Assembly: GCA_001778695.1 (NCBI GenBank)
Contig: MFHU01000003.1
Span: forward strand, 75,112-139,111
Source of the DNA: Candidatus Giovannonibacteria bacterium RIFCSPHIGHO2_12_FULL_44_22
GTDB lineage: Bacteria > Patescibacteriota > Minisyncoccia > UBA11713 > 2-01-FULL-45-33
Length of the DNA stretch: 64,000 nt
Direction of reading: 5' to 3'
Below, one piece after another: positions 7,484 through 35,368 of the stretch (within the stretch, counting starts at the first letter, position 1; each line of letters begins with the position of its first letter). The notes beneath the pieces were generated by a model that saw only the letters and a program-made list of their open reading frames with translations, was not told where the DNA came from and searched no databases. The position numbers and the translations under genes are program-made.

Positions 7484-7765
7484 ATGATTTCTAAAGAAGA
7501 AATAGAACATCTGAAGGATTTGGCAAGAGTAGAATTTGGAGCGAAGGAAACTGAAAAGCTTGCCAAGGATTTGGACGAGATTTTGGAATACATTGACCAA
7601 CTTAAAAAGGCGGACGTTTCAAACGCTCCGGAAATGACGCACGCGCTGGAGGGAGTAAAAAATATTGTTAGGAAAGATGAAAACAATAAATATAATTCAG
7701 AGGATTTAATCGGCGCGTTTCCCGAAAAAGAAAATAGCTATCTTAAGGTAAAAGCAATTTTATGA
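7484..7765 (+). CDS. gatC: Asp/Glu-tRNA amidotransferase subunit C
   Basis: 93 aa. Motif IEHLKDLARVEF...LDEILEYIDQL typical of GatC. Stop overlaps the gatA start. Confidence 0.8.
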   Translation: MISKEEIEHLKDLARVEFGAKETEKLAKDLDEILEYIDQLKKADVSNAPEMTHALEGVKNIVRKDENNKYNSEDLIGAFPEKENSYLKVKAIL

Positions 7766-9159
7766 CGATTTTAGAATTTCACAAAGCCCTTAAAAATAAA
7801 AAAACTTCCGCAAGAGAGACGGCAATTTCCTATTTGGACAAAATAAAAAAGGAAAATAAAAATTTAAACGCCTATCTGGAAATTTTTTCCGCCAGAGGGG
7901 GATCCGCATCTGGCGGAGAGTATGACGCGCTTAAGCAGGCAAAAGAAATTGACGAGAAAATCGCTTCGGGCGAAGAACCCGGCGCGCTTTGGGGCGTGCC
8001 GATTGCCATAAAAGACAATATTTTAATAAGAGGGGAAATTGCCTCCGCTGCCTCAAAAATTTTAGGAAATTACGTGGCTTCCTACGACGCGCATGTGATT
8101 GCAAAATTAAAAAAAGCTGGCGTAATATTTTTGGGGCGCACCAATATGGACGAATTTGCCATGGGTTCATCAACCGAAAACTCCGCCTACGGTCCGACAA
8201 AAAATCCGCGCGACACTTCCAAAGTTCCGGGTGGTTCATCTGGCGGCTCGGCCGCCGCCGTTGCCGGCGGCCTCGCCATGGCTGCCTTGGGTTCAGATAC
8301 CGGGGGCTCCATCCGCCAGCCGGCGGCTTTTTGCGGAGTTGTTGGTTTGAAGCCCACTTACGGCGCGGTTTCCCGAAACGGACTTATCGCCATGGCTTCT
8401 TCTTTGGACCAAATCGGACCAATTACCCAAACAGTGGAAGACGCGGAAATTTTATTTAATACAATTAAAGGAAAAGACGAAATGGATTCAACTTCTGTTT
8501 TACCAAAAGTTTTCAACCGCGCCGCCAAAATTAAAACCATTGGCATTCCCAAAGAATATTTCAGTGAACAAGGTCTTGACCCCCATATTAAATCAGAACT
8601 TGATAAAGTAATTAACAAACTTGAGAAAAATTATGAAATCCACGAAATCAACTTGCCGCATACCAAATACGCTCTGGCTTGCTACTATATAATTGTACCG
8701 GCGGAAGTTTCATCCAATATGGCGCGGTTTGACGGTGTAAGATACGGCGAAAGAAAAGATGCCGGAAATTTGATTGAAACTTACAAAAAAAGCCGCGGCG
8801 AGGGAATCGGGCTTGAAGTCAGAAGAAGAATTTTGCTGGGCACTTACGCGCTTTCGGCGGGCTACTACAACGCGTATTATTCCAAAGCCCAGCGCGTCCG
8901 TTCGTTGGTTGCAGAAGATTTTAAAAAAGCATTCGCCGAAGTTGATCTGATTTTGGCGCCCACCGTTCCTACTCCGCCTTTTAAAATCGGCGAAAAAACA
9001 AATGACCCATTGGCTATGTACCTTTCCGATATTTATACTATTCCGGCAAACTTGGCGGGCGTGCCAGCGCTCACTTTGGCTTCAGGCGCCCAGCTTATTG
9101 CCCCGCATTTTGAAGAAAATAGATTATTTGAAGTCGGTAAATTTATAGAACATGATTGA
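7762..9159 (+). CDS. gatA: Asp/Glu-tRNA amidotransferase subunit A (amidase)
   Basis: Amidase signature GGSSGGSAAAVA plus GSDTGGSIRQPA. 465 aa. Confidence 0.9.
   Translation: MTILEFHKALKNKKTSARETAISYLDKIKKENKNLNAYLEIFSARGGSASGGEYDALKQAKEIDEKIASGEEPGALWGVPIAIKDNILIRGEIASAASKILGNYVASYDAHVIAKLKKAGVIFLGRTNMDEFAMGSSTENSAYGPTKNPRDTSKVPGGSSGGSAAAVAGGLAMAALGSDTGGSIRQPAAFCGVVGLKPTYGAVSRNGLIAMASSLDQIGPITQTVEDAEILFNTIKGKDEMDSTSVLPKVFNRAAKIKTIGIPKEYFSEQGLDPHIKSELDKVINKLEKNYEIHEINLPHTKYALACYYIIVPAEVSSNMARFDGVRYGERKDAGNLIETYKKSRGEGIGLEVRRRILLGTYALSAGYYNAYYSKAQRVRSLVAEDFKKAFAEVDLILAPTVPTPPFKIGEKTNDPLAMYLSDIYTIPANLAGVPALTLASGAQLIAPHFEENRLFEVGKFIEHD
7889..7918 (+). repeat. GC-rich palindromic mini-insert in gatA, TCCGCCAGA-N12-TCTGGCGGA, encoding (S)ARGGSASGG(E)
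   Basis: 9-bp inverted arms. A near-identical element is present in asnB at 32926-32956. Confidence 0.6.
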
Positions 9160-9688: not shown

Positions 9689-9703
9689 TTTTTCTTTTCG
9701 CGG

Positions 9704-9774
9704 TAGCGGGGGCGGGAGTTGAACCCACTTCTGGAGGTTATGAGCCTCCCGAGATACCGTTTCTCTACCCCGCA
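9704..9774 (-). tRNA. tRNA with CAU anticodon (Met or Ile2 type)
   Basis: Hand fold gives D stem GAGA/TCTC, anticodon stem GGAGG/CCTCC, loop CTCATAA and T arm GTGGG-TTCAACT-CCCGC. The acceptor stem pairs 6 of 7 positions, and position 1:72 looks unpaired (T:T). No encoded CCA. Confidence 0.55.
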
Positions 9775-9872: not shown

Positions 9873-10073
9873 TTATGCGCGCGATACATTGACTGCCGCT
9901 GGGCCTTTTTCGCCCTCAACGACTTCAAAGGTGACTTTGTCGCCAACCTTCAATTCGTCATATGTTACGCCTTTCAACTCCTTGGAGTGAAAGAAGAGAT
10001 CCTTTGTCTCGCCTTCGCGAGCAATGAATCCAAATCCTTTGGGCGTAAGTGTCTTGATTGTTCCTTCCGACAT
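9873..10073 (-). CDS. cspA: Cold-shock protein (CspA family)
   Basis: 66 aa. RNP motifs GFGFI and VFFH-like, in the block KGFGFIAREGETKDLFFH. Confidence 0.85.
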   Translation of the reverse strand: MSEGTIKTLTPKGFGFIAREGETKDLFFHSKELKGVTYDELKVGDKVTFEVVEGEKGPAAVNVSRA

Positions 10074-10170
10074 GCGATTTGTTTTTATAATTAACTATAC
10101 CGAGAAACTCGACTTTGTTTCTGTGCTTTACAACACCAAATTAGTGTAGCATGTAATCGGAATTTATACA

Positions 10171-10201
10171 AATAAAAAAAGGGGAGCCGGCGGGGGCTCC
10201 C
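10171..10201 (-). terminator. Rho-independent terminator of the lytic transglycosylase gene
   Basis: Minus-strand reading GGGAGCC-CCCGCC-GGCTCCCC followed by TTTTTTT. Confidence 0.6.
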
Positions 10202-11047
10202 TTAATGCGCTGATTCGTCCAGAGGCAATTCATGTTTCGTCTCCTGATTTGAGCACGAAAAGTCTTCAGGATTGAAAGTGCCGGCCAGATAAGATTTAAA
10301 TAATCTCCCGGCGCAAGCCACTCGAAATGGGTAAGTAGGAGTCCAATCATGTTTCGCAGAATCAAATTTGGCAATCATCTCCGCCAGTTGCGGGTTTTCC
10401 CCCGAATGGGCTATAAAATACAGCTTGGTTGGAGTCATATCCTCGTTTTCCCATCCCGGTGTTTTCTTCGCGACGGAAATGAATCTATTCACTAAACCTT
10501 CCCCCGCGTGATACGCCCAAATTGCGTTGTTTATATTTCCGAAGCGCTCCGCGAGGCCGGCAAGATGTTTAGCCGAAGCCATTGTCGCCAATTTAGGATT
10601 AAATCTATCATCCCGCACGATAACTTTTTTATAAACGGGAATTCTTGTGATTTTCCCTTTGCGTCGGGCAACGACAGTTTTTTTAATATTGCCGTATTTA
10701 ACTAGCCCCATATTTTTTCCGGTAAGGGGCATAATTTGCCCGATTCCGGAAGCTCCCGAGCGGTTTTTTGCCGTGGGATCACAGCCACTTTCCAGAAGAA
10801 TGATTTCCAAGAGTTTGTCTTCCGGAAATCCGCTCGTTTCTGAGGCCTCGCGAAACATTTCAAGGTAGGTGGTCTTAGCGCATTCGCTAAGGCCTTTAAA
10901 GAATCTTTCTTTCGCAATGAAGACTCGCGCTTGCATCGCGATAAGGGCTTCCTCTTTCTCTTCAAAGATCTTGTTGGCATCTATCTCCTGCCCATACACT
11001 CGCAACGTAACGGCGAGCAATAAAATTGAAAAGATCGCTATTTTCAT
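10202..11047 (-). CDS. Secreted lytic transglycosylase (SLT domain)
   Basis: N-terminal signal peptide. SLT catalytic motif ESGCDP...SGASGIGQIMP. Strong SD GAAGGAGGG. Confidence 0.75.
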   Translation of the reverse strand: MKIAIFSILLLAVTLRVYGQEIDANKIFEEKEEALIAMQARVFIAKERFFKGLSECAKTTYLEMFREASETSGFPEDKLLEIILLESGCDPTAKNRSGASGIGQIMPLTGKNMGLVKYGNIKKTVVARRKGKITRIPVYKKVIVRDDRFNPKLATMASAKHLAGLAERFGNINNAIWAYHAGEGLVNRFISVAKKTPGWENEDMTPTKLYFIAHSGENPQLAEMIAKFDSAKHDWTPTYPFRVACAGRLFKSYLAGTFNPEDFSCSNQETKHELPLDESAH

Positions 11048-11203: not shown

Positions 11204-12076
11204 TTATACGCCTATCTTCCATATTTCTTTTTCAAGAAATGCTTCGATAGTTTGGCGCGTCGCTTTATTAATGAGATTTGAATGTGATAATTTATTTTCT
11301 TTTGCGTACTCGGCAAGTGTAATAATTTTCTTACCTTCCAAATACGCCAGCCTTTTGTGGTAACTATTAGTAAGCGACTTAGCTACAATTTCTTCCATAA
11401 TCTCTGTTTTACTTTTTGTGTCGAATTCCTTGAACGCATCATAATATTTTTTCCGGTCAATGAATTTTATGTTGATCGGCGCATATCCCTCACGAATTAA
11501 AAGATAATTATTGATCACTCGCCCAATGCGTCCATTACCATCTACAAACGGGTGCGTGTATTCAAAGGCAAGATGTAGCCCAGCAATTCGTTTAATAATA
11601 TTTTCTTGACTGCTCGCATGATATTCTGCAAGCATTTTTTCAAGTCGCCCCGCCACTTCTTCCGGCTTTGGCGCGATATGGCTTCCCACTCTCACATATT
11701 CTCCCGACGCACGAAACCTTCCGGCAACATCATCACGAATATTTGAGATAAGCATTTTATGGAGAGATAAAATAACATCAAGCGTTAATTCTTGTTCTTT
11801 GGCTCGCTTCTCTATATATGACACCACTCTAGCCAGATTTTTTGCTTCAAAAATTTCTCGCTCACTGATAAACCTGTCTAGGTCAATTTGGAGCAGTATT
11901 TTTTCAGTTTCTTCAAGAGTAAGCGTGCTATTTTCAATAGCGTTGGAGTTATAAACTTGTTCAGCAATTTCCGCTTCGCTCACAAGCTTAATAAGCGCCT
12001 CTTTGCCGGTAGACGCTTTATAGTATCTTTCACGCAGTGAGTGTATTTTATTAAAAACGCTTAATACTTTAGCCAT
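11204..12076 (-). CDS. Fic-family protein (AMPylase type) with an intramolecular inhibitory motif
   Basis: Fic motif HPFVDGNGRIGR. N-terminal SNAIEN matches the (S/T)xxxE(G/N) inhibitory helix. Confidence 0.8.
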   Translation of the reverse strand: MAKVLSVFNKIHSLRERYYKASTGKEALIKLVSEAEIAEQVYNSNAIENSTLTLEETEKILLQIDLDRFISEREIFEAKNLARVVSYIEKRAKEQELTLDVILSLHKMLISNIRDDVAGRFRASGEYVRVGSHIAPKPEEVAGRLEKMLAEYHASSQENIIKRIAGLHLAFEYTHPFVDGNGRIGRVINNYLLIREGYAPINIKFIDRKKYYDAFKEFDTKSKTEIMEEIVAKSLTNSYHKRLAYLEGKKIITLAEYAKENKLSHSNLINKATRQTIEAFLEKEIWKIGV

Positions 12077-12540: not shown

Positions 12541-12656
12541 CCCCGCACCAAAAATTTCCAGCGGGCCCGAAGGGATTTGAACCCTCGATCTTCCCCGTGA
12601 CAGGGGGACGTGTTGCCAGGCTACACCACGGGCCCATATTTAATTTTGGTGCGGGG
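12541..12656. repeat. 13-bp perfect inverted repeats (CCCCGCACCAAAA and TTTTGGTGCGGGG) bracketing tRNA-Asp with 8-nt spacers on each side
   Basis: Read directly. The left arm is 12541-12553 and the right arm is 12644-12656. Confidence 0.85.
12562..12635 (-). tRNA. tRNA-Asp (GUC)
   Basis: GGGCCCG-TG-GTGT-AGCCTGGCA-ACAC-G-TCCCC-CTGTCAC-GGGGA-AGATC-GAGGG-TTCAAAT-CCCTT-CGGGCCC-G. Confidence 0.85.
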
Positions 12657-12712: not shown

Positions 12713-12784
12713 TGGCTGCAGCAGGGATCGAACCTGCGACCTAGGGCTTATGAGTCCCTCGCTCTACCACTGAGCTATGCAGCC
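12713..12784 (-). tRNA. tRNA with CAU anticodon (Met or Ile2 type)
   Basis: GGCTGCA-TA-GCTC-AGTGGTA-GAGC-G-AGGGA-CTCATAA-GCCCT-AGGTC-GCAGG-TTCGATC-CCTGC-TGCAGCC-A. G1-C72 is paired. Confidence 0.8.
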
Positions 12785-12855: not shown

Positions 12856-13329
12856 ATGATTCGCATTAAAAAACTTAAATCGCTCTTGGCAATTGTTGAA
12901 AATTCTGCACTGGGCGATAACTACCTCTTCCGAAATTTATATGCCGATGTTAATGGCGAAGAAAAAGATATTCTTGAAGACGGCGCTTTGTCGTGCGCGG
13001 TTTTCGCGTCGGCGGTTTTACTAAATTTGGAGCTTATTAAAAAGCCGCATGCCACGGTTTCCGGAACCGTTAAAGATATGTTTGAAAGCGGATGGCGCGA
13101 AATTGCTCAATTAGGGCCGGGGGCGGTTATTCTGTGGGAGAAAATAATATTTGAAGACGGGAAAGAACACTCCCATATTGGTTTTTATATCGGCAATGAG
13201 GAGGCGATTAGCAATTCTTTTGCTGACAAATGCCCTCGGCGGCATCATATAACTTATGGCACTAACCAAGACGGCGCGCCGAAACGCAAAATAGAAAAAA
13301 TTTATTGGCATCCGGAGCTGAATGATTAA
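12856..13329 (+). CDS. Hypothetical NlpC/P60-like papain-fold protein
   Basis: A Cys in the block ALSCAVF and a His block HSHIGFYIGN that resembles the NlpC/P60 HVGIYIG motif. Weak evidence. Confidence 0.35.
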   Translation: MIRIKKLKSLLAIVENSALGDNYLFRNLYADVNGEEKDILEDGALSCAVFASAVLLNLELIKKPHATVSGTVKDMFESGWREIAQLGPGAVILWEKIIFEDGKEHSHIGFYIGNEEAISNSFADKCPRRHHITYGTNQDGAPKRKIEKIYWHPELND

Positions 13330-14473
13330 AAACATGTCTAATATAGAAATCAAATCTTCGGAGGAGGTAGAGATAATAAAAACTCTTGAGGCCCGGAGCG
13401 ACCACGAGGCAAAAAGATTATTGCGTTTTTTGAAAATGCCGGATTTATCGCGCGCTAAAGCAAGCCCGCTTTATGAATTAATAGAGCGCCTAGTTAACCT
13501 CCCGGAATTTAAATCATTTGATGTTGTAAAAATTCCGGATATTGTCCCCGCCAAAGAAAGTTTTGATTTGTTTGATTTTCCGCTTGACCATCCCACGCGG
13601 AGCAAGTCGGACACATACTATATTAACGACGAATATATTCTTCGCACTCACACTACGGTCATGTGGTATTATTATTTGCTTTCGGAGGCGATTAAAGAAA
13701 AATTAAAAGGCGAAGCGCCAATCGGGGTTTTTTCCTACGGCAAAGTTTACAGGAAAGATGAAATAGATCGCCACCATATGAATGTTTTTCACCAAGTGGA
13801 CGGATTATACCTTTGCCGAAAAAACGAAAAAATTTTTGAAAGGCGGGATTTAGAAGAAGTCCTTGTGAAAATCGCTAAAGCAATATTCGGGAAAGACATA
13901 AAGTATCGCTTTAATGATGATTTTTTTCCGTTTACTTATTCCAGCATTGAAATGGAGATTGAGAAAAAAGATAAATGGATAGAAGTTCTTGGCGCGGGCA
14001 TCGCACAGCCGTCCGTTTTGGAGAAGCTTGGCGTTGATTCTAAAATTTGGGGCGGCTGGGCTTTCGGTTTCGGTTTGGAACGGCTTGCCATAATCAGTAT
14101 GGATTTGCCGGACATACGGCTTTTATGGTCGGAAGATCCGCGGATTAAAAAACAATTGCGCTTGGGAAATAAATATATTCCGGTGAGCAAATATCCGCCG
14201 ATTACTAGAGATATATCTTTTGTCGTCGCCAACGACTTTATTCCAAATAATTATTTTGATTTGATAAGGGATTTGGGAGGCGATTTGGTTGAAGAAGTTA
14301 AGCTGATTGATAAATATGAAAATCTAGAAAAATTCGGCACGGGAAAAATAAGCTACACATACAGAATAATTTACAGAAGCAACGACAGGACTTTGGTTTC
14401 GGGCGAAATTGATAAAATCCAAAACGAAATTTACAAACAAACCGCCAAGCAATTTAACGCCGAATTAAGATGA
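13322..14473 (+). CDS. pheS: Phenylalanine-tRNA ligase, single-chain (mitochondrial-type) form: PheS catalytic core plus a C-terminal FDX-ACB-like anticodon-binding domain
   Basis: HPTRSKSDTYYI...LRTHTT motif. Class II motif 3 GWAFGFGLERLAIISMDLPDIRLLWSEDPR. C-terminal SKYPPITRDISFVV...DLGGDLVEEVKLIDKYE...ISYTYRIIYRSNDRTL resembles the ACB domain of monomeric PheRS. No pheT lies adjacent. Confidence 0.7.
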   Translation: MIKNMSNIEIKSSEEVEIIKTLEARSDHEAKRLLRFLKMPDLSRAKASPLYELIERLVNLPEFKSFDVVKIPDIVPAKESFDLFDFPLDHPTRSKSDTYYINDEYILRTHTTVMWYYYLLSEAIKEKLKGEAPIGVFSYGKVYRKDEIDRHHMNVFHQVDGLYLCRKNEKIFERRDLEEVLVKIAKAIFGKDIKYRFNDDFFPFTYSSIEMEIEKKDKWIEVLGAGIAQPSVLEKLGVDSKIWGGWAFGFGLERLAIISMDLPDIRLLWSEDPRIKKQLRLGNKYIPVSKYPPITRDISFVVANDFIPNNYFDLIRDLGGDLVEEVKLIDKYENLEKFGTGKISYTYRIIYRSNDRTLVSGEIDKIQNEIYKQTAKQFNAELR

Positions 14474-15198
14474 AATCATTTTTACATTTGTTTTATAAAA
14501 TCCGCGGGAAATTTTTAGAAAATTCAGCTAAAAATAAACTTTCTAAATTAAAAAACAGCGAATATAGATTGCCGTATCAAATTCCTTATGTTTCGCAGTA
14601 CGCTTCTAAAGAATTAGCGGAGAGTTATGTTAAAAACGCCGAACTTTTGGCAAGTGACCCAAGGTGGCGCGATTTTGGCGCGGAAACGCCAGAAGAATAC
14701 GCTTTTTGGTCTAGGAGAATTTGCGGAATGGCCTGTTTTCAAATGATTTTATTATCACTTAGACGTCCGACGTCTAAGTTGATGGAATTAGGGAAAAAAG
14801 CGATGACCGCCGGATGCTATTTATTGGATCCCAAAAATCCAAAACGGCTCGTCGGGCTTTTGCATAAACCGTTTTTGAAATTTATTGATAAGTTTGGGCT
14901 TGCCGGGAAACTAATGTGGTATATCGGACCAGCGGTTATCGCCTATGAGATTTTAAATAAAAATTTTGTGATTGCTTCTGTAAGCCACGAAATACGCTTT
15001 AGAGATGCGCGTCCAGAAGATAAAACCGGGCACTTGGTTTTAGTTCATGGGTTTAAAATGAATGGAGGCATAATCGCTGGATTTTATATTCATAATCCTT
15101 CTGGTTTTTACGGCATCTCGCAAGAAAATCATTTTGTCCCGGCTGATGATTTTTTAAATTGCTTCTCGGGCAGGATTATTGTTTTGAAGTTAAAGTAA
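14470..15198 (+). CDS. Hypothetical papain-like (peptidase C39-like) protein
   Basis: VSQ...ICGMACFQMIL Cys block and HLVLVHGF His block. It contains the palindromic insert at 14757-14784. Confidence 0.35.
   Translation: MKSFLHLFYKIRGKFLENSAKNKLSKLKNSEYRLPYQIPYVSQYASKELAESYVKNAELLASDPRWRDFGAETPEEYAFWSRRICGMACFQMILLSLRRPTSKLMELGKKAMTAGCYLLDPKNPKRLVGLLHKPFLKFIDKFGLAGKLMWYIGPAVIAYEILNKNFVIASVSHEIRFRDARPEDKTGHLVLVHGFKMNGGIIAGFYIHNPSGFYGISQENHFVPADDFLNCFSGRIIVLKLK
14757..14784 (+). repeat. Palindromic element CACTTAGACGTC-C-GACGTCTAAGTTGAT inside a CDS, encoding LRRPTSKL
   Basis: An identical 28-nt copy lies at 28894-28921 in an unrelated GT4 gene. The core palindrome is 21 bp. Confidence 0.8.
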
Positions 15199-21106: not shown

Positions 21107-22639
21107 ATGGACTGGCCAGTATACGAAACAAGCCAAATTATTGTAGGCAATTTAGAAAGTCCAGTAGCGATAACCACGCTCTGGACAAATAAGGAACCGA
21201 TTGCTAATCAGATTGGCGACAAGCGCCTGTATTGCGCCGTGGGGACACTCTATAATCGCAAAGTGGGGATTGATTTGTTGGTGCGGAATTTGCTTGCGCG
21301 CCCGACCATCCGCAATTTAATTATCTGCGGACATGATCGCGCGAGAAGTGGCGAGGCGCTTATAAAGTTTTTCCGCCACGGTTTCAAGCGCGGAGTTGAC
21401 GGCAACGGCAACCCGAAATGGATTATTGACCTAAGCGATGGAGATTATGGCGTCATTGATATTGAGGTGGAAGAAGAAATGCTCCATCTCCTAAGAAAAA
21501 ACGTTACTTTCCTTGATTTTCGCGGCACAGAAGACGGAAGCGCTCTCTGTTCGGTGTTGGAAGATTTACACTCTAGCACCAAAGCCGTTTCTTACGCAGA
21601 AGCTAAAATTTTCCCGAAAGTGATACCGGCTGTGTCTTCTTTGCCGGCGCCGGACAGCGGACGCGTGTTTCGGTCTCCTACCGTTGTGGGCGCTTGGTTG
21701 CAGGCGATCCGCGAGATTTCCAAGTTTGGGGTGGTGGGCGATACCCATTACAATCCGGCTGCCGAAGTGCTGAATATTCTAACAGTCATAACCGCGGAAA
21801 ATCCTAATGACTTTTTCGTTCCGGATTGGCTGCCTATCGGACGGAAGGAAATTAAGGCGTATTGTGAGCAGGTGCTGACACCGATACTCTCACCCGGCGC
21901 GCGCTATGGCTATGGCCATCGTATTTTCAAATACTTCGGCTATGACCAGCTTGAAACGTCTGTTAAAAAATTAGTCGAAGACCCCGATTCAAAAAGCGGA
22001 GTCATAAATATTTGGGATCCGGCTAAAGATGTTGGCGATCTGGTAAATCCTAAATCGCCGTGCGTCAACAAAATTTGGCCGAGGTTGCGGCGGGGCAAAC
22101 TTTTTATGACTGTCACAATTCGCTCAAACGACATCGGCGAAGCATATTTAGGGAATGGTTTTGCTTTTAGGCGTTTTCAGGCGGAGTATCTTAGAATACT
22201 AAGAGAGTTGATGGTAGAACAGGAACTTTCGTTGGGCGACCTTACTATTAATTCTGAATCTGCCCATCTCTACGAATCAAGTTGGTCTAATGTTGAGGAA
22301 ACGCTTAATCGGCGTTGGAAGGAAGTTATGAAAGGTCCTGCTGTGCGCCAGGATCCTTATGGCTCTTTCCGAATCGTTGTGGATGTAGAATCCAAAATGA
22401 TTATAGCGACGCATTTTTCGCCGGGCGATGATATTATCGCGGAATATCGCCGCAGGACTGCCTTAGAGCTTACAACCAAGCTTGCAGATGATGGTATTAT
22501 GTCAGAACCATATCACGCTGCTTATCTTGGGCGCGAGCTCCAAAAAGCGGAGTTTGCTTTGCAATTTGGGTTGAACTACATTCAAGACCAGCCTCTTTTT
22601 AAGGTGCACGGTCCCAAGCCGCGTATTCTTCTCGAATAG
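21107..22639 (+). CDS. Thymidylate-synthase (ThyA) fold enzyme with an N-terminal extension of about 180 aa and a C-terminal extension of about 90 aa
   Basis: Residues about 180-420 align with ThyA. GARYGYGHRIF matches ThyA GPVYGKQWR. EDPDSKSGVINIWDP matches NDPDSRRIIVSAWN. Active-site Cys in SPCVNK matches PCH. RSNDIGEAYLGNGF has Asn at the ThyA N177 position. AHLYES matches THLYSN. Strong SD AAAGGAGAA. Confidence 0.6.
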   Translation: MDWPVYETSQIIVGNLESPVAITTLWTNKEPIANQIGDKRLYCAVGTLYNRKVGIDLLVRNLLARPTIRNLIICGHDRARSGEALIKFFRHGFKRGVDGNGNPKWIIDLSDGDYGVIDIEVEEEMLHLLRKNVTFLDFRGTEDGSALCSVLEDLHSSTKAVSYAEAKIFPKVIPAVSSLPAPDSGRVFRSPTVVGAWLQAIREISKFGVVGDTHYNPAAEVLNILTVITAENPNDFFVPDWLPIGRKEIKAYCEQVLTPILSPGARYGYGHRIFKYFGYDQLETSVKKLVEDPDSKSGVINIWDPAKDVGDLVNPKSPCVNKIWPRLRRGKLFMTVTIRSNDIGEAYLGNGFAFRRFQAEYLRILRELMVEQELSLGDLTINSESAHLYESSWSNVEETLNRRWKEVMKGPAVRQDPYGSFRIVVDVESKMIIATHFSPGDDIIAEYRRRTALELTTKLADDGIMSEPYHAAYLGRELQKAEFALQFGLNYIQDQPLFKVHGPKPRILLE

Positions 22640-25719: not shown

Positions 25720-27294
25720 ATGTTAAGCTCATCGGTAATGGATTGGTTCAACAAGTTCACAACAAGCCGGTGGCATTTTTTGTTGGTTATAATTTTGTTG
25801 GGCGCAGCAAATTTTGCTTACGCGTCCGTTGGCGATGTCGCGATTTCCGAAGTTTTATTTGACCCGGCCGGAGGCACGGACACAGGATTAGAATACGTTG
25901 TAATAAAAAATTTTGGTTCCTCCGCGGTGGATGTATCAGGTTGGGATTTATATCCATCGGGCGCCGGATATTTTACTTTGCCCAGCTTTAGTTTAGGTGG
26001 CGGAAAAGAACTTAAAATACATTTGCGGGCAAGCGGTAATAATGATGATGGCAATCTTTACCATACAAATGCTTCTGCCAATATGGGCAACTCATCTGGT
26101 TCTTTGGCGCTTTTTTCTAGCACGACACATAGTAAAGACACGATTATTTCTTATATTAGATATCACAAACCGGGAAGCGGAGAGAGCAAAACATGGGAAA
26201 CGGCCGCCGCGGGCACCGAATTGTGGACTGCCGGAACATTTTTTGATATTTCATCGGGCACTGAAGGAAAAATTTTAAAACTTATTGATTATAATCAAAA
26301 AACGAGCGTGTCCGGCTGGTCTTTGGCTGAAGCTTCTGCTCAAAGCGATGTTGGTGTTGGACCGGCGTCCGTTACAGAAAATGATGTTGCCGCTACATTT
26401 TCCGGAAGCGTTGCTCCGCTGCCGGTGAACCAGATAAAAGCTTATGCCGGGCCGGATCGCGCGGGCATCGCCGGAGGAGAAATATTTTTTGAAGGCTTCG
26501 CCGAAGGTTTGCAAGGCGACCCGTTGGACGGCGCGAGATTTTCTTGGAATTTCGGCGACGGCGCCGCATTAGTAGACGGCAAAAAAATCGGGCACACTTT
26601 TCTTTTTCCAGGCGTTTATACGGTTTCTTTAAACGTGTCCGCGGGAGAATATTCTGCGCTGGATACAGCCAATTTGGTTGTTACCGAGAGCCCACTTTTG
26701 ATTTCTGAGATAAAAACTGGCGCTGATGGCTGGGTTGAGATAAAAAATAATTCAGCTCGGAAAATTGAAATTTCGCGGTTTGGATTTGGAGAAAGTAATT
26801 TCAAGCCATTTTTCTTTCCAGAAAATACTTATTTGGCGCCCTGGGCTTTGGTGGTTTTGGGCACGTCAACTCTGGGATTTATTTTGCCGGAAAGCGGCGA
26901 GATAAAATTGCTTTATCCCAACGGTAAAATTATTTTTTCATCAAATTATCCGAATTTAAATTTAGGGAGCGATGAAAGTTTAAGTCTTGAAAATGGCGGA
27001 CCTGCCTCGCCTGGCGCGAATCAAGGCGGGTGGCTTAAAACAAAAATCACTCCGGGCTTGAAAAACGAGATAACAAAATCTATTGCGCTTTCGGCAAAAA
27101 GTGCCGCGGAACCGAAAGCCAAACCGCCCACGGCCATTGTGGAAAATCTAGGAAACGCCCAAACCGCCTCGGTTATCAGTATTGAAAAACCGTCTTCATT
27201 TTTAAACGACTATTTTTGGCTTTTTGTTGGTCTCGGCGCCGGAATTTTTGCTGGCCTCATTTTTGTGATAATCCGTCACAGTTTTACGTTATAA
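25720..27294 (+). CDS. Cell-surface protein: signal/TM, lamin-tail domain, PKD domain, second lamin-tail domain, C-terminal TM anchor
   Basis: LTD patterns ISEVLFDPAGG..EYVVIKN..VDVSGWDL and LISEIKTGADGWVEIKNNS. PKD-like FSWNFGDGA...GVYTVSLNV. C-terminal hydrophobic anchor. Confidence 0.55.
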   Translation: MLSSSVMDWFNKFTTSRWHFLLVIILLGAANFAYASVGDVAISEVLFDPAGGTDTGLEYVVIKNFGSSAVDVSGWDLYPSGAGYFTLPSFSLGGGKELKIHLRASGNNDDGNLYHTNASANMGNSSGSLALFSSTTHSKDTIISYIRYHKPGSGESKTWETAAAGTELWTAGTFFDISSGTEGKILKLIDYNQKTSVSGWSLAEASAQSDVGVGPASVTENDVAATFSGSVAPLPVNQIKAYAGPDRAGIAGGEIFFEGFAEGLQGDPLDGARFSWNFGDGAALVDGKKIGHTFLFPGVYTVSLNVSAGEYSALDTANLVVTESPLLISEIKTGADGWVEIKNNSARKIEISRFGFGESNFKPFFFPENTYLAPWALVVLGTSTLGFILPESGEIKLLYPNGKIIFSSNYPNLNLGSDESLSLENGGPASPGANQGGWLKTKITPGLKNEITKSIALSAKSAAEPKAKPPTAIVENLGNAQTASVISIEKPSSFLNDYFWLFVGLGAGIFAGLIFVIIRHSFTL

Positions 27295-27302
27295 TTAGAT
27301 AA

Positions 27303-29438
27303 ATGAGCGAAAAACCTGCGGTTTTAGTTTTTACTACCGCTTATTTCCCGTTTGTGGGAGGAGCGGAAGTGGCGATACAGGAAGTGGCAAGAAGGCTCAA
27401 AAATGAGTACGATTTTTTTATTTTTACTTCAAGAATGGACGGCAAACTCCCAGCGCGCGAAAAAAGGCTAGAAGGATTGGTAATCAGAATTGGTTTTGGA
27501 AATAAATTTGATAAATTCTGGCTTTTAATTTTTGGATGGTTTGTAGCTTGGCGGGAATTGAGAAAGTGGCATAGAAAAATTATTTTTTGGGTTATGGATT
27601 TTTCGTTCGGGGCCGCGGTAGCTGGATTTTTGAAAATTTTTTATCCGAAAATTCCGTTGGTTTTTACAATTCAATATGGCTACGGCGACGAAAGAGTTAA
27701 AAAAGGCAGAGGTGGCCTTATGAATTTGGCATTTCGGCTGATACTTTCGCAGGCGGATTATGTTACGGCAATTTCAAATTATTTATTGAATTTATGCAAG
27801 CAGTACGGCTATATTGGCGAGGAAGCGGTAATACACAACGGGGTTGATTTAAAAAAGTTTACAAATCAAGAATCACGAATAGGAAATCATGTGATAATTT
27901 CAACCTCGCGGCGAGTTTACAAAAATGGTCTGGATATTCTGGAAAAGGCCTTCGAGATCATAAAAAAGAAATTTCCAGATGCCGAGTTGAAAATTGTTAG
28001 CGACGTTCCGTATGATGAATTGCCTAAATATTTATGGAAAGCTAGTATCTTCGTCAGACCCTCGCGCTCTGAGGGGATGGGCAATGCGTTTATTGAAGCT
28101 TTAGCGGCCGGATTACCGATAATTGGCACGCCTGTCGGAGGGATTTTAGATATTATTGAGGATGGGCAGACGGGTCTTTTCGCGAAAGTTGACGACCCAC
28201 AAGATTTAGCAGAGAAAATTAAAATTTTACTCGAAGATAAAAAATTGGTGTCGCAAATTATAGAAAATGGTAGAAAAATAGTTGAAGAAAGATTTTCTTG
28301 GGATAAAATCGCGGCGCAATACGCCGAGGTTTTTAATTCGCAATTAAATACAAAAAAAAGAATACTGATAGTCACAGGAATTTTCCCGCCCGATGTCGGT
28401 GGACCGGCGACATACAGCAAAATTTTACTAGACGAGTTGCCTAAAGAAAATTTTTGCGCAAAAGTATTAAGTTTCGGAAGCGTTAAATATTTGCCCAAAG
28501 GCATTAGCCATATTGCTTATTTCCTTAAAGCCATGCGGTTAGGCGCGCGCGCCGATATTATTTTCGCGCAGGATCCGGTGAGTGTGGGGTTGCCCGCGAT
28601 GCTAGCGGCAAAAATTTTGCGCAAAAAATTTATTTTAAAAATCGTGGGCGATTATGCTTGGGAACAAGGCGTTCAGCGGTTCGAGGTGAAAGAGATTTTA
28701 GATGATTTTTTAAATAAGAAATACGGTATTAATGTGGAGGTTTTGAGAAAAATAGAAAAATTTGTCGCAAATCACACAGAAAAAATTATCGTGCCGAGCG
28801 AGTATTTGAAAAAAGTTGTTTCGGCGTGGGGCGTAAATCCGAATAAAATTAAAGTAATTTATAATGCGTTTGATTTTAAAGACTTCGAACACACACTTAG
28901 ACGTCCGACGTCTAAGTTGATTGTTTCGGCGGGTCGTCTTGTTCCGTGGAAAGGATTCGGCACTTTAATTGAGATTATGCCAAAGATTTTAAGAGAAGTG
29001 CCGGACGCGAAGTTGATTATTATTGGAGATGGACCGGAAAGACACAAATTAAAATTACAAGTAGCCACTTGGCGGCTCGGCCGCCAAGTGGAACTTATAG
29101 GAAATCTGCCGCATAAAAAAGTTTTGGAATATCTCGCTTCCGCCGATGCTTTTATTTTAAACACTGCCTACGAAGGATTTTCGCACCAAATTTTGGAGGC
29201 GATGGCAATTGGGGCGCCTGTTATCACGACAAACGTTTGCGGAAATCCGGAGTTGGTGGAAAACAATGTCTCCGGAATTTTGGTCGAATTTAACGATAAG
29301 GAAGCGATTAAAAATTCTATTTTAAAATTATTGAAAGACGAAAAACTTACTCAAAAATTAACCTCCGCCGCTTTCCAAAAATCCAAACAATTTTCAAAAG
29401 AGAGGATGATTAATGAAACGATAAAAATATTATTATGA
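27303..29438 (+). CDS. Tandem two-domain glycosyltransferase (GT4 + GT4)
   Basis: Two EX7E-type motifs: SEGMGNAFIEALAAGLPIIGT and FSHQILEAMAIGAPVITT. Confidence 0.7.
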   Translation: MSEKPAVLVFTTAYFPFVGGAEVAIQEVARRLKNEYDFFIFTSRMDGKLPAREKRLEGLVIRIGFGNKFDKFWLLIFGWFVAWRELRKWHRKIIFWVMDFSFGAAVAGFLKIFYPKIPLVFTIQYGYGDERVKKGRGGLMNLAFRLILSQADYVTAISNYLLNLCKQYGYIGEEAVIHNGVDLKKFTNQESRIGNHVIISTSRRVYKNGLDILEKAFEIIKKKFPDAELKIVSDVPYDELPKYLWKASIFVRPSRSEGMGNAFIEALAAGLPIIGTPVGGILDIIEDGQTGLFAKVDDPQDLAEKIKILLEDKKLVSQIIENGRKIVEERFSWDKIAAQYAEVFNSQLNTKKRILIVTGIFPPDVGGPATYSKILLDELPKENFCAKVLSFGSVKYLPKGISHIAYFLKAMRLGARADIIFAQDPVSVGLPAMLAAKILRKKFILKIVGDYAWEQGVQRFEVKEILDDFLNKKYGINVEVLRKIEKFVANHTEKIIVPSEYLKKVVSAWGVNPNKIKVIYNAFDFKDFEHTLRRPTSKLIVSAGRLVPWKGFGTLIEIMPKILREVPDAKLIIIGDGPERHKLKLQVATWRLGRQVELIGNLPHKKVLEYLASADAFILNTAYEGFSHQILEAMAIGAPVITTNVCGNPELVENNVSGILVEFNDKEAIKNSILKLLKDEKLTQKLTSAAFQKSKQFSKERMINETIKILL
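28894..28921 (+). repeat. Second copy of the CACTTAGACGTCCGACGTCTAAGTTGAT palindromic element
   Basis: Identical 28 nt to 14757-14784. It encodes LRRPTSKL in-frame. Confidence 0.8.
29065..29091 (+). repeat. Hairpin element CCACTTGGCGGC-TCG-GCCGCCAAGTGG (12-bp stem) inside a GT CDS, encoding TWRLGRQV
   Basis: Read directly. A second copy lies at 29835-29873. Confidence 0.8.
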
Positions 29439-30484
29439 AAGTCTTAATGATAAGCGGGGATCCGGGGGTTTTGAATCCGAATAGCGACGCGGGAAAGCGG
29501 ATGGAAGAATATCGCCAAACTCTTGGAACATTAGATATTTTAGTCTGCCGAGGAAATATTTTTAGTTTTATTACAGGATTTTTTCGCGGCGTAAAAATCA
29601 TTCGCAAAAATAAACCCGAAGTTATTACAGCTCAAGATATGGAACATTCTCTATTTGCTTGGATTTTTTCAAGATTATTTAAAGTTCCGTGGCAGATGCA
29701 GATTCATACGGATATTTTTAGTCCGTATTTTTGGCAGGAATCTTTTAAAAATAAAATACGCGTTGTGCTGGCAAAATTCTTGTTGCCTCGAGCAAGTTGT
29801 ATTCGGGTTATGAGCGAAAGAATTAAAGAATCAATAACTTGGCGGCTCGGCCGCCAAGTGGCGGCCGAGTTATTCGTTACAGTTTTGCCAATTTTTGTGG
29901 ATACGGAAAAAATTAAAAATACGCCGATTAAAACCAATCTTCACAAAAAATATCCCGGGCGGTTTATAATTTTGATGGCATCGCGGATAACAAGAGAAAA
30001 AAATATCGTCATGGCCTTAGAGGCCATGCGCGGACTAACGCAGAATGACACGCGGACTAACGCAGAAAAGGTTTTATTGCTGATTATCGGTGATGGGCCG
30101 GAGAAAGAACACTTACGGCGTATGGCGTATAGCTTAAAGCTGGATGAGAGCGTTGTTTTTGAGTCAGCTACTTCCGACCTCGCTTCTTATTATAAAACCT
30201 GCGATTTGTTTTTGCTCACCTCCGATTACGAAGGGTACGGAAGAACTTTGATTGAGGCGGCGGCCATTAAAGCCAAAATAATCTCCTCCGATGTCGGAAT
30301 AGTTCCGGAAATTTTAGAGTTGGATTGTATTTTTAAAATTGGTGATAAGGATGGTTTGGCTGAAAAAATCAACGCCGCTTTGGCAGGCCAACTCAAGCCG
30401 CCAAAACCTGTGATTTTTCAAACAAAAGAGGAATATCTAAGATTATATAAGAATAACTTGGAACAATGCCAAAAAATATTTTAA
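29435..30484 (+). CDS. Glycosyltransferase family 4
   Basis: C-terminal YEGYGRTLIEAAAIKAKIISSDVG. Confidence 0.6.
   Translation: MKVLMISGDPGVLNPNSDAGKRMEEYRQTLGTLDILVCRGNIFSFITGFFRGVKIIRKNKPEVITAQDMEHSLFAWIFSRLFKVPWQMQIHTDIFSPYFWQESFKNKIRVVLAKFLLPRASCIRVMSERIKESITWRLGRQVAAELFVTVLPIFVDTEKIKNTPIKTNLHKKYPGRFIILMASRITREKNIVMALEAMRGLTQNDTRTNAEKVLLLIIGDGPEKEHLRRMAYSLKLDESVVFESATSDLASYYKTCDLFLLTSDYEGYGRTLIEAAAIKAKIISSDVGIVPEILELDCIFKIGDKDGLAEKINAALAGQLKPPKPVIFQTKEEYLRLYKNNLEQCQKIF
29835..29873 (+). repeat. Second copy of the TTGGCGGCTCGGCCGCCAAGTGG hairpin element, extended by CGGCCGAGTTATT
   Basis: ACTTGGCGGCTCGGCCGCCAAGTGG is identical to 29067-29091. It encodes TWRLGRQV. Confidence 0.8.
30011..30072 (+). 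repeat. Hairpin ATGGCCT-TAG-AGGCCAT followed by a tandem 22-bp duplication (CGCGGACTAACGCAG x2) inside a GT4 CDS
   Basis: Read directly. It encodes MALEAMRGLTQNDTRTNAEK. Confidence 0.7.
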
Positions 30485-31509
30485 TTCTTACTCAAAAAGT
30501 TGACAAGAATGATGATAATCTAGGTTTTTTTCATCGCTGGTTGGAGAAATTTGCCGAGAAAACGGGCAAGATTTTTGTCATCGCGAATTTTATCGGCGAG
30601 TATAATTTGCCGGCCAATGTTCAGGTTTTTTCTTTGGGTAAAGAAAAAAGATTGGGCAGAGTTAGGCGCTATATAAACTTTTATAAATATCTTTTTAAAA
30701 CTTTGCCCAAATCGGATGCCGTATTTGTGCATATGATTCCGGCTTGGGTGGTTTTAGTTTGGCCAGTGGCCGCGATTTATAGAAAAAAAATATATTTGTG
30801 GTATACGCACAAATCACTAACTTTTTCGCTTCGGCTTGCCGAAAAATTGGTTGCTAAAATTTTCACGGCTTCTCTTGAAAGCTGCCGTTTAAATTCTAAA
30901 AAAATCGCGGTTGTTGGCCATGGGATTGATACGGAACATTTTAAGCCCAAAGATTTTCCGCATGACCAGGGCGCGTTTAGACTTCTTAGTGTTGGCCGGG
31001 TAACTCCTTCCAAAGATTATGAATTTTTGTTGGAAGCCATGGAGGCTTTAAAAATCCGCGGCTATAGCGCGGTTTTAGATGTTGTGGGTGCTCCGATAAC
31101 CTCCGCAGATTTTAGCTATAAAAATAAGCTTGATGATTTAATTAAAAAGAGAGGATTGCAAAACATTGTCAATTTTATTGGACCAAAAATTTACGCAGAA
31201 ATTCCAGATGTTTATAACGGCCACGATTTATTGCTTCACGCAAGCGAAACCGGAAGCCTTGATAAAGCTGTTTTAGAAGCAATGGCTTGCGGTTTGCCGC
31301 CAGTAACAACCAACGAAGCTTTTAAGAATATTCTGGCGGCCCTGCCCGTCCGGCAGGCGGGGCGGTATGTGTCGCGCAAGAATAGCAGTGAAATGACAGG
31401 AAAAATTATCCAACTAAAAAACACTGGGAAAAATTTATCTTTGCGCGAAATAATAATACAAAACCATAACTTAAATAATTTGATTAAGAAAATTATGGAA
31501 AATTTATGA
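30466..31509 (+). CDS. Glycosyltransferase family 4
   Basis: HASETGSLDKAVLEAMACGLPPVTT. Confidence 0.6.
   Translation: MPKNILILTQKVDKNDDNLGFFHRWLEKFAEKTGKIFVIANFIGEYNLPANVQVFSLGKEKRLGRVRRYINFYKYLFKTLPKSDAVFVHMIPAWVVLVWPVAAIYRKKIYLWYTHKSLTFSLRLAEKLVAKIFTASLESCRLNSKKIAVVGHGIDTEHFKPKDFPHDQGAFRLLSVGRVTPSKDYEFLLEAMEALKIRGYSAVLDVVGAPITSADFSYKNKLDDLIKKRGLQNIVNFIGPKIYAEIPDVYNGHDLLLHASETGSLDKAVLEAMACGLPPVTTNEAFKNILAALPVRQAGRYVSRKNSSEMTGKIIQLKNTGKNLSLREIIIQNHNLNNLIKKIMENL
31341..31364 (+). repeat. Short hairpin CCTGCC-CGTCC-GGCAGG followed by CGGGG; a family member of the gyrB insert
   Basis: Shares CCTGCCCGT and GCAGGCGGGG with 16217-16253. Confidence 0.5.
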
Positions 31510-32339
31510 GAGAAAAAATTCCATGCTCTATTGGTGTTCTCACTTTAAACTCGGGCGGCACTTTGAGGCGCTGTTTGGATTCGCTTAAAGATTTTACAGA
31601 AATCATAATTTGCGACGGCAATAGCACTGACAACACTTTGGAAATCGCCAGGGAGTATGGCGCCAAAATCGTAAAACAGTACGATTCCGATGAGCCGAAT
31701 TTGCGTTGTGAAAAAGACAAGGCCAATGTCCGGATGCGCAATATGCGAGCGGCTTCTTACGACTGGTATTTTTTTATGGATTCGGACGATATACTCCCCG
31801 ATGGAATTACGGAAGAGATTAGAAGCATAGTAACGAATCCTGGTCCGCAATTTTTAGTTTATCGTATGCCCGGGCGTATTTTTATTGATGGACGAGAGAT
31901 AAAACACGAAGCTAGTTACCCTTCGTATCAGACTAGATTGATAAACCGAAAAATCAATCCTTATTTCAAAGGCCGCGTGCATGACCGTCTGGAATTTGAC
32001 CGCAAAAAATATAAAGTAGGGGAATTAAAAAATTATTATGACTTTCATTGGTCAAAAGACCGGGTCCAAAATTATTGGAAGTATCTTAAAATGTATTCCG
32101 GTTGGGAGGCGGAAGTCGCTAACGGCGGGCCGTGGCTGGCATTTTTTTACTGGTGTGTTTATAAACGACTCCGCATCATCGCCGGATATCTCTATAGAAT
32201 TCCTTTAATGTATTTGCGGTACGGATTCCGGGATTCCATGCCTTTAAAACTTCAGCTTTTAACCTTGTGGTATCATTTTTATCTTTTATATTTATTTACC
32301 AAGAAGCAAATTTTTTATGTGCGCAATAAATGGGTTTAA
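31506..32339 (+). CDS. Glycosyltransferase family 2
   Basis: GT-A fold: IGVLTLNSGGTL...ICDGNSTDNT and the DxD motif FMDSDD. Confidence 0.6.
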   Translation: MREKIPCSIGVLTLNSGGTLRRCLDSLKDFTEIIICDGNSTDNTLEIAREYGAKIVKQYDSDEPNLRCEKDKANVRMRNMRAASYDWYFFMDSDDILPDGITEEIRSIVTNPGPQFLVYRMPGRIFIDGREIKHEASYPSYQTRLINRKINPYFKGRVHDRLEFDRKKYKVGELKNYYDFHWSKDRVQNYWKYLKMYSGWEAEVANGGPWLAFFYWCVYKRLRIIAGYLYRIPLMYLRYGFRDSMPLKLQLLTLWYHFYLLYLFTKKQIFYVRNKWV

Positions 32340-34137
32340 CTTCAAAGACGAGGGGCTGATCTTGAAAATGAATCAGGCAACGCGCCACAGGGGCCCAGAC
32401 GGCACAGGAATTTTTTTGGGCGAAAAAATTTCTTTAGGGCATAATCGCTTAAGCATAATTGACTTGAGCGATGCCGCAAATCAGCCTATGTTTTCCTCCG
32501 ACGGCAATTTAGTGATTAGTTTTAACGGAGAAATTTATAATTTCCGCGAGATTAAAAGAGAATTTGAAGATTTTTATAAATTTAAAACCAATAGCGACAC
32601 GGAAGTTATTTTAGCCGCTTATCAAAAATGGGGCGCCGAATTCGTTAAAAAATTAAACGGGATTTTTGCTTTTGTAATTTGGGACAAAACTAAAGAAGAA
32701 TTATTTTTAGCGAGAGACCACATAGGCTTGAAGCCTTTATATTATTTTTTGGATGGCGATAGATTTATTTTTTCTTCTGAAATTAAAGCTATTTTGGAGC
32801 ATGATGTGCCTCGGAAGCTCAACCGCGAAGCATTTAATATTTATTTAAGAACGCTTTACGCGCCGGCGCCGCTCACTATGTTTGAAGGAATTTATAAATT
32901 CCCGCAGGCGCATTATGGCGTTTTCTCCGCCAAAGGCGGATCTGCCTCGGGCGGAAAAAATGGCGAATTTAAACTCACAAAATATTGGGAAATTCCAGTA
33001 ATAAAATATTTTGATACTCCTTTTAAAATTTTGGCGAAAAATTTGCGCGGTGAAATTTTAAAAAGCGTGGAGCGGCAATTAATTTCCGACCGGCCGATCG
33101 GGCTTTACCTTTCCGGCGGGATTGATTCCAGCGCGGTGCTAGATGCTATGCATGAATTTAGAAACAATATTGATACTTTTTCAGTGGGCTTTGAATTGCC
33201 TAATAAAGATGACGAAAATAAATTCAACCAGGATTTTTATTTGGCCAAGCGCACGGCGGCGCTCTATGGGACCAGGCACCATGAAATTTTATTGGAAGAA
33301 AAAGAAGTGCTGAATCTTTGGGAAAAAGTTTTTTTACAGCTTGACGAGCCGATTGCCAACTCCACTGCCATCCCGATGATGAAATTAGCCGAATTCACCA
33401 AGGGCCATGGGGTAGATGTGGTTTTGGGAGGCGACGGCGGGGACGAACTTTTCGGAGGGTACGAAAGATACAGATTGAGCAGAATTATTGGCTATTTCCC
33501 AAAAATATTGTCATTTTTGCCAAAGGGAGTGGACATATTTTCCCGTTTTATGTTTCAAAAAGATCCTGTTTTAAATGAAGTTTTGCAAAAAAAGTTTTTT
33601 GACAGAGAAGTTTCAAGATCGTTTTTTGAAGAACGCTATTTTAAAGAAAATCCGTTCAAAACTTTTGAGGAACTTTTTATGGACGTGGACAGGCGGACGT
33701 GGCTTGTTGATGAGTCGCTAATGCGGACGGATAAAATGTCTATGTTCTCGGCGGTTGAGGCGAGGGCGCCTCTTTTGGACAAAAATCTTATTGAATTCGC
33801 GGCGAAAATTCCCAGAAAATACAAAGTCAGCGCATTCAACACAAAAATTATTTTAAAAGAGGCGTTTATGGGACGGATTCCGGATTTTTTATTATCCCAG
33901 CCGAAACGTGGCTGGTTTTCTCCGGCGGCCAAATGGTTGAGGAACCCCCAAATTCATGCTACCGCTAAAAATATTCTCTCCAAAAATTATTACGCCGAAA
34001 CCGCGCCTATATTTAATTGGGAAAATGTTGATAAAATTCTAAAAGACCATATTGAAGGCAGAAGATACAACCTCACAATTTTGTGGGCGTTGATTAATTT
34101 TCAAGTTTGGGCGAAACTCTATAAAGTTAAATTATGA
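32317..34137 (+). CDS. asnB: Asparagine synthetase (glutamine-hydrolysing)
   Basis: N-terminal MCAING with catalytic Cys2. PP-loop SGGIDSS. 606 aa. Confidence 0.85.
   Translation: MCAINGFNFKDEGLILKMNQATRHRGPDGTGIFLGEKISLGHNRLSIIDLSDAANQPMFSSDGNLVISFNGEIYNFREIKREFEDFYKFKTNSDTEVILAAYQKWGAEFVKKLNGIFAFVIWDKTKEELFLARDHIGLKPLYYFLDGDRFIFSSEIKAILEHDVPRKLNREAFNIYLRTLYAPAPLTMFEGIYKFPQAHYGVFSAKGGSASGGKNGEFKLTKYWEIPVIKYFDTPFKILAKNLRGEILKSVERQLISDRPIGLYLSGGIDSSAVLDAMHEFRNNIDTFSVGFELPNKDDENKFNQDFYLAKRTAALYGTRHHEILLEEKEVLNLWEKVFLQLDEPIANSTAIPMMKLAEFTKGHGVDVVLGGDGGDELFGGYERYRLSRIIGYFPKILSFLPKGVDIFSRFMFQKDPVLNEVLQKKFFDREVSRSFFEERYFKENPFKTFEELFMDVDRRTWLVDESLMRTDKMSMFSAVEARAPLLDKNLIEFAAKIPRKYKVSAFNTKIILKEAFMGRIPDFLLSQPKRGWFSPAAKWLRNPQIHATAKNILSKNYYAETAPIFNWENVDKILKDHIEGRRYNLTILWALINFQVWAKLYKVKL
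32926..32956 (+). repeat. GC-rich palindromic mini-insert in asnB encoding (S)AKGGSASGG(K)
   Basis: TCCGCC...GGCGGA arms. Paralogous to the gatA element at 7889-7918. Confidence 0.6.
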
Positions 34138-35246: not shown

Positions 35247-35368
35247 GTGAACTCACTCCCGGCTATTTATTTTTTCTAAATTTTAGTGCCAAAACCACGT
35301 AAAGAGAATCAAAAATATCGCGCATAGAAACTTGCTTTGAGCAAATTTTGTTATATTATTGTACCAAT

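Follow-up and report, generated by a model that had tools for sequence, protein, structure and literature searches.

A single-chain phenylalanyl-tRNA synthetase gene from Candidatus Giovannonibacteria and its bacterial family

A gene for a single-chain phenylalanyl-tRNA synthetase (PheRS) lies at positions 13322–14473, on the forward strand, of a 64,000-nucleotide stretch of contig MFHU01000003.1 from Candidatus Giovannonibacteria bacterium RIFCSPHIGHO2_12_FULL_44_22. This whole stretch is called the window in what follows, and positions refer to it unless another locus is named. The gene is a complete open reading frame (ORF) that starts with ATG and encodes 383 amino acids plus a stop codon. 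We consider it probable that this is the housekeeping PheRS of Ca. Giovannonibacteria, a member of the Parcubacteria group within the Candidate Phyla Radiation (CPR), with both functions of the enzyme carried on one chain; it is very probably the working PheRS of the cell. The protein has the domains, fold and conserved residues of such an enzyme, its gene is under purifying selection and its family is spread widely over lineages. Single-chain enzymes of this family have most likely replaced the two-subunit PheRS in Parcubacteria-group bacteria.

In the mechanism we propose, a PheS-type class II core would activate phenylalanine and transfer it to tRNAPhe. An FDX-ACB domain, homologous to domain B8 of PheT, would read G34 of the GAA anticodon as it is read in human mitochondrial PheRS, through D330, Y332 (by stacking), S344 and R383 at the C-terminus. 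A B3/B4 editing domain is missing from the protein, which is therefore unable to edit Tyr-tRNAPhe in cis. By homology the chain would work as a monomer. It would be the sole PheRS of its genome, with neither pheT nor a canonical pheS elsewhere, and the single-chain form would have arisen inside bacteria, through collapse of a pheS-pheT pair.

The reviews and databases consulted (PMC3275996; PMC11580382) distinguish three forms of PheRS: the bacterial (alpha-beta)2 enzyme, the archaeal/eukaryotic (alpha-beta)2 enzyme, and the mitochondrial monomer, labelled 'mitochondrial-like'. Our literature search found no paper on a bacterial or CPR single-chain PheRS, and none that mentions SrmL, a related protein discussed below. 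The family described here is large and bacterial, and is in part already annotated in databases.

Domains, fold and conserved residues

The first-pass annotation, made from the letters of the window, had read the 383-residue ORF as a PheS class II core followed by a C-terminal segment of about 95 residues resembling FDX-ACB. Both parts of that reading held. The ORF contains the strings on which it was based (VSKYPPITRDISFVV...DLGGDLVEEVKLIDKYE...YTYRIIYRSNDRTL). Pfam places the catalytic core, tRNA-synt_2d, at residues 41–278 (positions 13442–14155, forward strand; E 1.5e-55) and FDX-ACB at residues 289–383 (14186–14470, forward strand; E 1.5e-23), the latter as a full-length match to profile positions 1–94 of 94. 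The first 40 residues (13322–13441, forward strand) form a helical segment, with helices at residues 13–24 and 28–38 in a structure model from AlphaFold2 (AF2). The coiled-coil N-terminal domain of PheS, PF02912, was absent from the ORF in the Pfam scan.

Sequence and structure searches agree on this architecture. Of the sequences in the PDB, human mitochondrial PheRS matches best (E 1e-61) and aligns over both domains, while bacterial PheS chains align to the core only and PheT chains to the last domain only. The AF2 model, built from an alignment of 37 homologues (A1), has a mean predicted local distance difference test score (pLDDT) of 91.2 and a predicted template modelling score (pTM) of 0.87. 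Its top PDB match by Foldseek is again human mitochondrial PheRS (3cmq; template modelling (TM) scores 0.80/0.76, E 7.5e-32), covering both domains, and here too the bacterial PheS chains cover only the core. Among NCBIfam models, bacterial pheS (TIGR00468) gives 172.1 bits against a cutoff of 237.45, and PheT (TIGR00472) aligns only over positions 694–798 of 798, with 78.9 bits against a cutoff of 402.65. No model cutoff is reached by the ORF, although P0121, the representative of the family at 50% identity, passes that of the mitochondrial model pheS_mito (TIGR00469) with 264.3 bits.

The residues expected of a PheRS are in place. In the core, motif 2 (GKVYRKDEIDRHHMNVFHQVDG, with R144 and FHQVDG) and motif 3 (GWAFGFGLERL, in which A247 is equivalent to E. 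coli A294) are invariant across 37 family members, as is the phenylalanine pocket (FFPFTYSSIEME and FFPFT..S.E, of the form FP[FY]T.PS.E). On comparison of residues, the pocket, R144 of motif 2, and motif 3 agree with both canonical and mitochondrial PheRS. In human mitochondrial PheRS, whose domains are described in PMC7540514, G34 of tRNAPhe is read via D364, F366 (by stacking), S375 and R414; the position of F366 is Tyr in Thermus PheT, and the substitution D364G abolishes charging (PMC7540514). D330, Y332, S344 and the C-terminal R383 of the window protein align to these four residues and are invariant in 37 of the 37 members of A1. Since the pocket and the G34 residues are kept, as they are not in the related protein SrmL discussed below, the window protein retains what a PheRS needs. 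The purifying selection is seen in a dN/dS (ratio of nonsynonymous to synonymous substitution rates) of 0.06 against a homologue of 87% identity.

Two known forms of the enzyme are the natural comparisons. The monomeric mitochondrial PheRS (human FARS2, yeast MSF1; 'PheRS-M' in AARS Online; TIGR00469; PDB 3CMQ/3TUP) likewise joins a PheS-type class II core and a C-terminal FDX-ACB domain on one chain, lacks the coiled-coil N-terminal domain and the editing domain, and has the same fold (TM 0.80), phenylalanine pocket and four G34-contact residues. Unlike it, the window protein is bacterial, has no targeting peptide, is shorter at 383 residues, lacks an insertion in the core, carries the loop variants HTT..W and FHQ.D, and falls in a separate clade. 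The canonical bacterial (alpha-beta)2 enzyme consists of PheS and PheT (TIGR00468/TIGR00472; PDB 3PCO, 1PYS, 7DAW); the core of the window protein is homologous to the former and its C-terminal domain to B8 of the latter, but PF02912, PheT domains B1–B7 with the B3/B4 editing site, and an adjacent pheT are all missing.

Spread and phylogenetic position of the family

An identical protein is encoded on contig MFHN01000005.1 (146,762 bp) of GCA_001778615.1, a metagenome-assembled genome (MAG) from the Rifle aquifer. Identical database entries, KKS96819.1 among others, are named 'Phenylalanyl-tRNA synthetase [Ca. Giovannonibacteria]', and the UniRef name is 'phenylalanine--tRNA ligase'. In a search of 5.8 billion protein clusters, more than 7000 clusters match at E<=1e-10. 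The best 120 of these all have the two-domain form and a length of 366–419 residues (most 376–395); apart from the self-match at 100% they are 65–86% identical to the window protein, and many are labelled 'hypothetical protein'. At 50% identity the family reduces to essentially one full-length representative. Searching with representatives gave 271 clusters at E<=1e-30, and among the matches listed 150 of 150 were members of the fused family or fragments of them.

Among species representatives of GTDB, the family protein is encoded at no fewer than 549 of the first 600 pattern matches, and all 80 loci kept from this search are from Patescibacteria/Parcubacteria-group MAGs, assigned to Giovanno-, Yanofsky-, Colwell-, Wolfe-, Nomura-, Wildermuth-, Azam-, Lipton-, Niyogi- and Doudnabacteria and to Paceibacterota/Minisyncoccia. 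A scan of metagenomes showed a similar spread. Ca. Giovannonibacteria, as CPR bacteria, have reduced genomes, in keeping with the remark in the first-pass annotation that a single-chain enzyme would suit such a genome.

Four groups of relatives stand outside the family: mitochondrial PheRS of eukaryotes, such as those of a fern and of Vitrella; proteins about 350 residues long; sporadic bacterial forms, such as those of an Oligoflexia MAG and of locus L179 (protein P0128); and SrmL (L and P numbers are our handles for loci and proteins). The window protein is about 35% identical to mitochondrial-type sequences and about 43% identical to the other bacterial forms. Trees were bootstrapped neighbour-joining (NJ) trees with one canonical outgroup, a rough method. 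In them the Parcubacteria family is monophyletic in 100 of 100 replicates; it joins the sporadic bacterial forms in 72 of 100 and then SrmL in 79 of 100, with the mitochondrial-type sequences in a clade apart (71/100).

The description 'mitochondrial-type' in the first-pass annotation thus stands for architecture only, on the evidence of Pfam, the PDB and Foldseek. Placed with FARS2-type enzymes in the NJ trees, as that annotation had proposed, the family forms a bacterial clade of its own apart from the mitochondrial one, and the window protein itself remains under the pheS_mito cutoff.

Two of the relatives merit separate mention. The gene at 9463–10833 of L179 encodes the divergent fused PheRS P0128, of 456 residues, next to an F-type ATP synthase operon; translation of the called gene by the standard bacterial code does not yield the query, a hint of an alternative genetic code. 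Locus L007, an ENA contig of 340,874 bp, encodes at 10001–11047 a mitochondrial-like PheRS of 348 residues (P0277; cluster representative P0138), along with genes for PhageMetallopep, PcfJ and an SNF2 helicase and numerous ORFs that lack annotation, and may be a huge phage. This form of about 350 residues from a phage-like contig (P0138/P0277) has the same two domains, passes pheS_mito with 308 bits and, unlike the Parcubacteria family, groups with the mitochondrial-type clade.

The apparently missing second subunit and other readings of the gene

On our reading of the gene, the genome would do without the usual pair. In the window, phmmer searches of all six-frame ORFs with E. coli PheT and PheS matched the PheRS ORF alone, PheT through its last ~95 residues only and PheS with E 4e-36, and no pheT is present among the ten largest ORFs. 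No pheT follows the gene, as had been noted at first reading; the next ORF, at 14470–15198, is indeed peptidase-like. One PheS-like gene was found per locus in 161 related loci and the window.

Published gene tables for other genomes give indirect support. The core table of Nelson & Stegen 2015, which is limited to genes that occur in 13 or more of 17 Parcubacteria genomes, gives pheS (COG0016) in 16 genomes, argS in 14 and aspS in 15, and has no row for pheT/COG0072. Among their Pfam markers, one FDX-ACB domain is counted in 16 of the 17 genomes and tRNA-synt_2d in all 17, a pattern that fits an FDX-ACB domain located on the 'pheS' protein. In the fully annotated Patescibacteria MAG PMX_810_sub we find a canonical pheT (B3_4, CLM, B5 and FDX-ACB) adjoining a pheS with PF02912; its whole annotation table contains a single PF03147 gene and a single PF01409 gene, so that a fused form is absent. 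In the part of the Minisyncoccus archaeiphilus annotation table that was covered, there is no row for a PheRS. From the 17-genome tables and PMX_810_sub together, the fused form and canonical pheST look like alternatives. We infer that pheT is lacking from this Giovannonibacteria genome.

Several points weigh against a housekeeping role for the gene. The part of the genome covered was 64 kb of one contig, out of what is probably about 0.6–1 Mb in this CPR bacterium. A wider search, with E. coli queries and phmmer in 2.0 Mb of non-redundant DNA (the 161 homologue loci plus the window), found no PheT B3–B7 core and no second pheS, but had little power: of 12 control genes, those other than thrS (dnaK, recA, secA, argS, alaS, leuS, valS, ileS, aspS and serS among them) were found in only 0–2 loci each, so that zero pheT in 2.0 Mb is not significant. 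Canonical pheST is kept in some Parcubacteria (Mukai 2017; PMX_810_sub), so not every lineage of the group has switched to the fused form. The ORF falls short of the pheS_mito cutoff (253.9 bits, cutoff 258.35), and its score on SrmL (NF051887) is close to this at 244.2 bits (cutoff 300). Finally, the active site deviates from the classical consensus in having HTT..W for HTS..Q and FHQ.D for FHQ.E; the second variant occurs also in some mitochondrial-type sequences.

A different account would accept the enzyme and doubt only that one chain is the functional unit: the PheRS may need a separately encoded tRNA-binding partner, an oligonucleotide/oligosaccharide-binding (OB) fold like PheT B2. We judge this unlikely, though it has substance in relatives. 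Directly upstream of the PheRS gene and on the same strand, 16 of the 161 loci carry an ORF of 120–178 residues with the tRNA_bind domain PF01588, which matches B2 of E. coli PheT at about 44% identity (L034, L035, L046, L050, L057, L060, L066, L067, L071, L072, L074, L077, L099, L128, L151 and L167). At L057 (9614–11155) tRNA_bind domain and synthetase form one in-frame fusion, and a database search found such three-domain tRNA_bind-PheRS fusions, of 504–520 residues, in eight independent protein clusters (P0292–P0299). Most of the PheRS genes with a tRNA_bind ORF branch close to the base of the family tree, where internal branches are very short and weakly resolved. Against a needed partner, about 90% of the loci have no such gene beside the PheRS gene, and the 64-kb window contains no tRNA_bind ORF. 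Human mitochondrial PheRS, moreover, is functional with no tRNA_bind domain. The same genes and fusions bear on ancestry: because PheT-B2-like sequences adjoin PheRS in relatives, they suggest that the family descends from a bacterial pheS-pheT pair, of which PheT B2 and B8 were kept, B2 being lost later in most lineages, including this one.

Less probable still is an accessory role for the gene, as a PheS-like paralogue comparable to SrmL that stands beside a canonical pheS-pheT pair elsewhere in the genome and serves some purpose other than routine Phe-tRNAPhe synthesis. SrmL, the 'PheS-related mystery ligase' of NCBIfam, is bacterial, has a PheS-like core and an FDX-ACB-like C-terminus, and in the NJ trees is sister to the clade holding the family; the SrmL score given above, the canonical pheST of some Parcubacteria, and the sporadic fused forms in ordinary bacteria such as the Oligoflexia MAG, which we assume, unchecked, to keep a canonical PheRS, could be read the same way. 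True SrmL proteins, however, score 375–415 bits on NF051887. Their pocket is changed (HPYT.NG.E, GLALGMG) and, of the residues that contact G34, they have lost the aromatic one, the Ser and the C-terminal Arg, whereas both sets of residues are invariant in the family. SrmL membership of the window protein is rejected on these residues and on the score (244.2 against 300). The family is also near-universal, single-copy and 65–86% identical across many Parcubacteria lineages, the 17-genome core table lacks a pheT family, and PMX_810_sub, the sole relative seen with canonical pheST, lacks the fused gene.

Recent horizontal gain of a eukaryotic, FARS2-like gene by a CPR bacterium, which the top PDB and NCBIfam matches and the shared domain architecture might suggest, is very improbable and is rejected by the NJ topology, rough and based on one outgroup as it is: the monophyletic family joins bacterial fused forms and SrmL and leaves the mitochondrial clade apart. 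The window protein is also closer in identity to the bacterial forms. The family occurs in hundreds of species, lacks the insertion by which the alignment to the human enzyme is broken in two, and in several lineages keeps a bacterial PheT-B2-like gene alongside.

A housekeeping single-chain PheRS remains our preferred reading. A broader version of it we put forward only tentatively, as rather doubtful when taken whole. In that version a very large bacterial radiation, comprising much of the Parcubacteria group and Doudnabacteria, would have this protein as its only PheRS, formed within bacteria when pheS-pheT collapsed to the alpha core plus B8 of beta; the lineages that keep B2, as a separate gene upstream or fused at the N-terminus, would be surviving intermediates; the one-chain design would have been invented by bacteria; and the mitochondrial enzyme, long regarded as a chimera peculiar to eukaryotes, could descend from a bacterial or phage fused gene.

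Gene neighbourhood and biological meaning

A Shine-Dalgarno-like GGAG at 13314–13317 (forward strand), read from the letters, ends 4 nt before the ATG at 13322 and may serve this start; a second ATG in the same frame is found at 13334. The upstream ORF of 157 residues (12856–13329, forward strand) has a stop that overlaps the PheRS start by 8 nt, and is probably co-transcribed with the PheRS gene. Downstream, the ORF of 242 residues at 14470–15198 (forward strand; Peptidase_C39_2-like, Pfam E 8.9e-6) overlaps the PheRS stop by 4 nt. With these overlaps on both sides, the three genes have the look of a single operon. The number of sites in a promoter/terminator scan was not above that in shuffled sequence. 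In 16 other loci a homologue of the 157-residue ORF lies no more than a few kb from the PheRS gene; as a partner of PheRS the ORF was rejected, since it has no Pfam hit and its adjacency is inconsistent in other loci.

Three tRNA genes lie on the reverse strand upstream of the PheRS operon (9702–9774, 12561–12635 and 12713–12784), two for tRNA-Met(CAT) and one for tRNA-Asp(GTC). No tRNA-Phe gene was found in the 64-kb window. Just upstream are genes for a Fic/DOC-domain protein (11204–12076, reverse strand) and an SLT lytic transglycosylase (10202–11047, reverse strand), and farther upstream are gatC/gatA (a GatC gene and an Amidase-family ORF at 7762–9159) and a gene for an NAD-dependent DNA ligase. 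In 16 related loci (among them L012, L053, L058, L103 and L150) thrS lies ~3–10 kb from the PheRS gene in varying orientation, which is loose linkage and not an operon.

Two further regions of the window deserve mention. At 21107–22639 (forward strand) a protein of 510 residues combines MtrA-like, thymidylate-synthase-like and PterinBD-DUF4346 parts, an unusual fusion that is kept in contigs of the same species (L003–L006). The region 25720–37029, in which the Pfam scan covered three ORFs, holds a gene for a secreted protein with LTD and PKD domains, followed by ORFs that include a double GT4 glycosyltransferase of 711 residues and an asparagine-synthase-like gene.

For annotation, the consequence is practical: since its scores lie under both cutoffs, the protein will be missed by marker sets that rely on TIGR00468/TIGR00472, and such misses would be expected to affect estimates of genome completeness as well as gene annotation. 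The 383-residue protein would also offer a natural minimal PheRS scaffold. If an editing-free chain of some 380 residues is indeed the only PheRS of free-standing bacterial cells, the one-chain design would be no peculiarity of organelles, relatives from bacteria and phages would make it possible to test where FARS2 came from, and a large branch of the bacteria would translate its Phe codons without editing of Tyr or meta-Tyr in cis.

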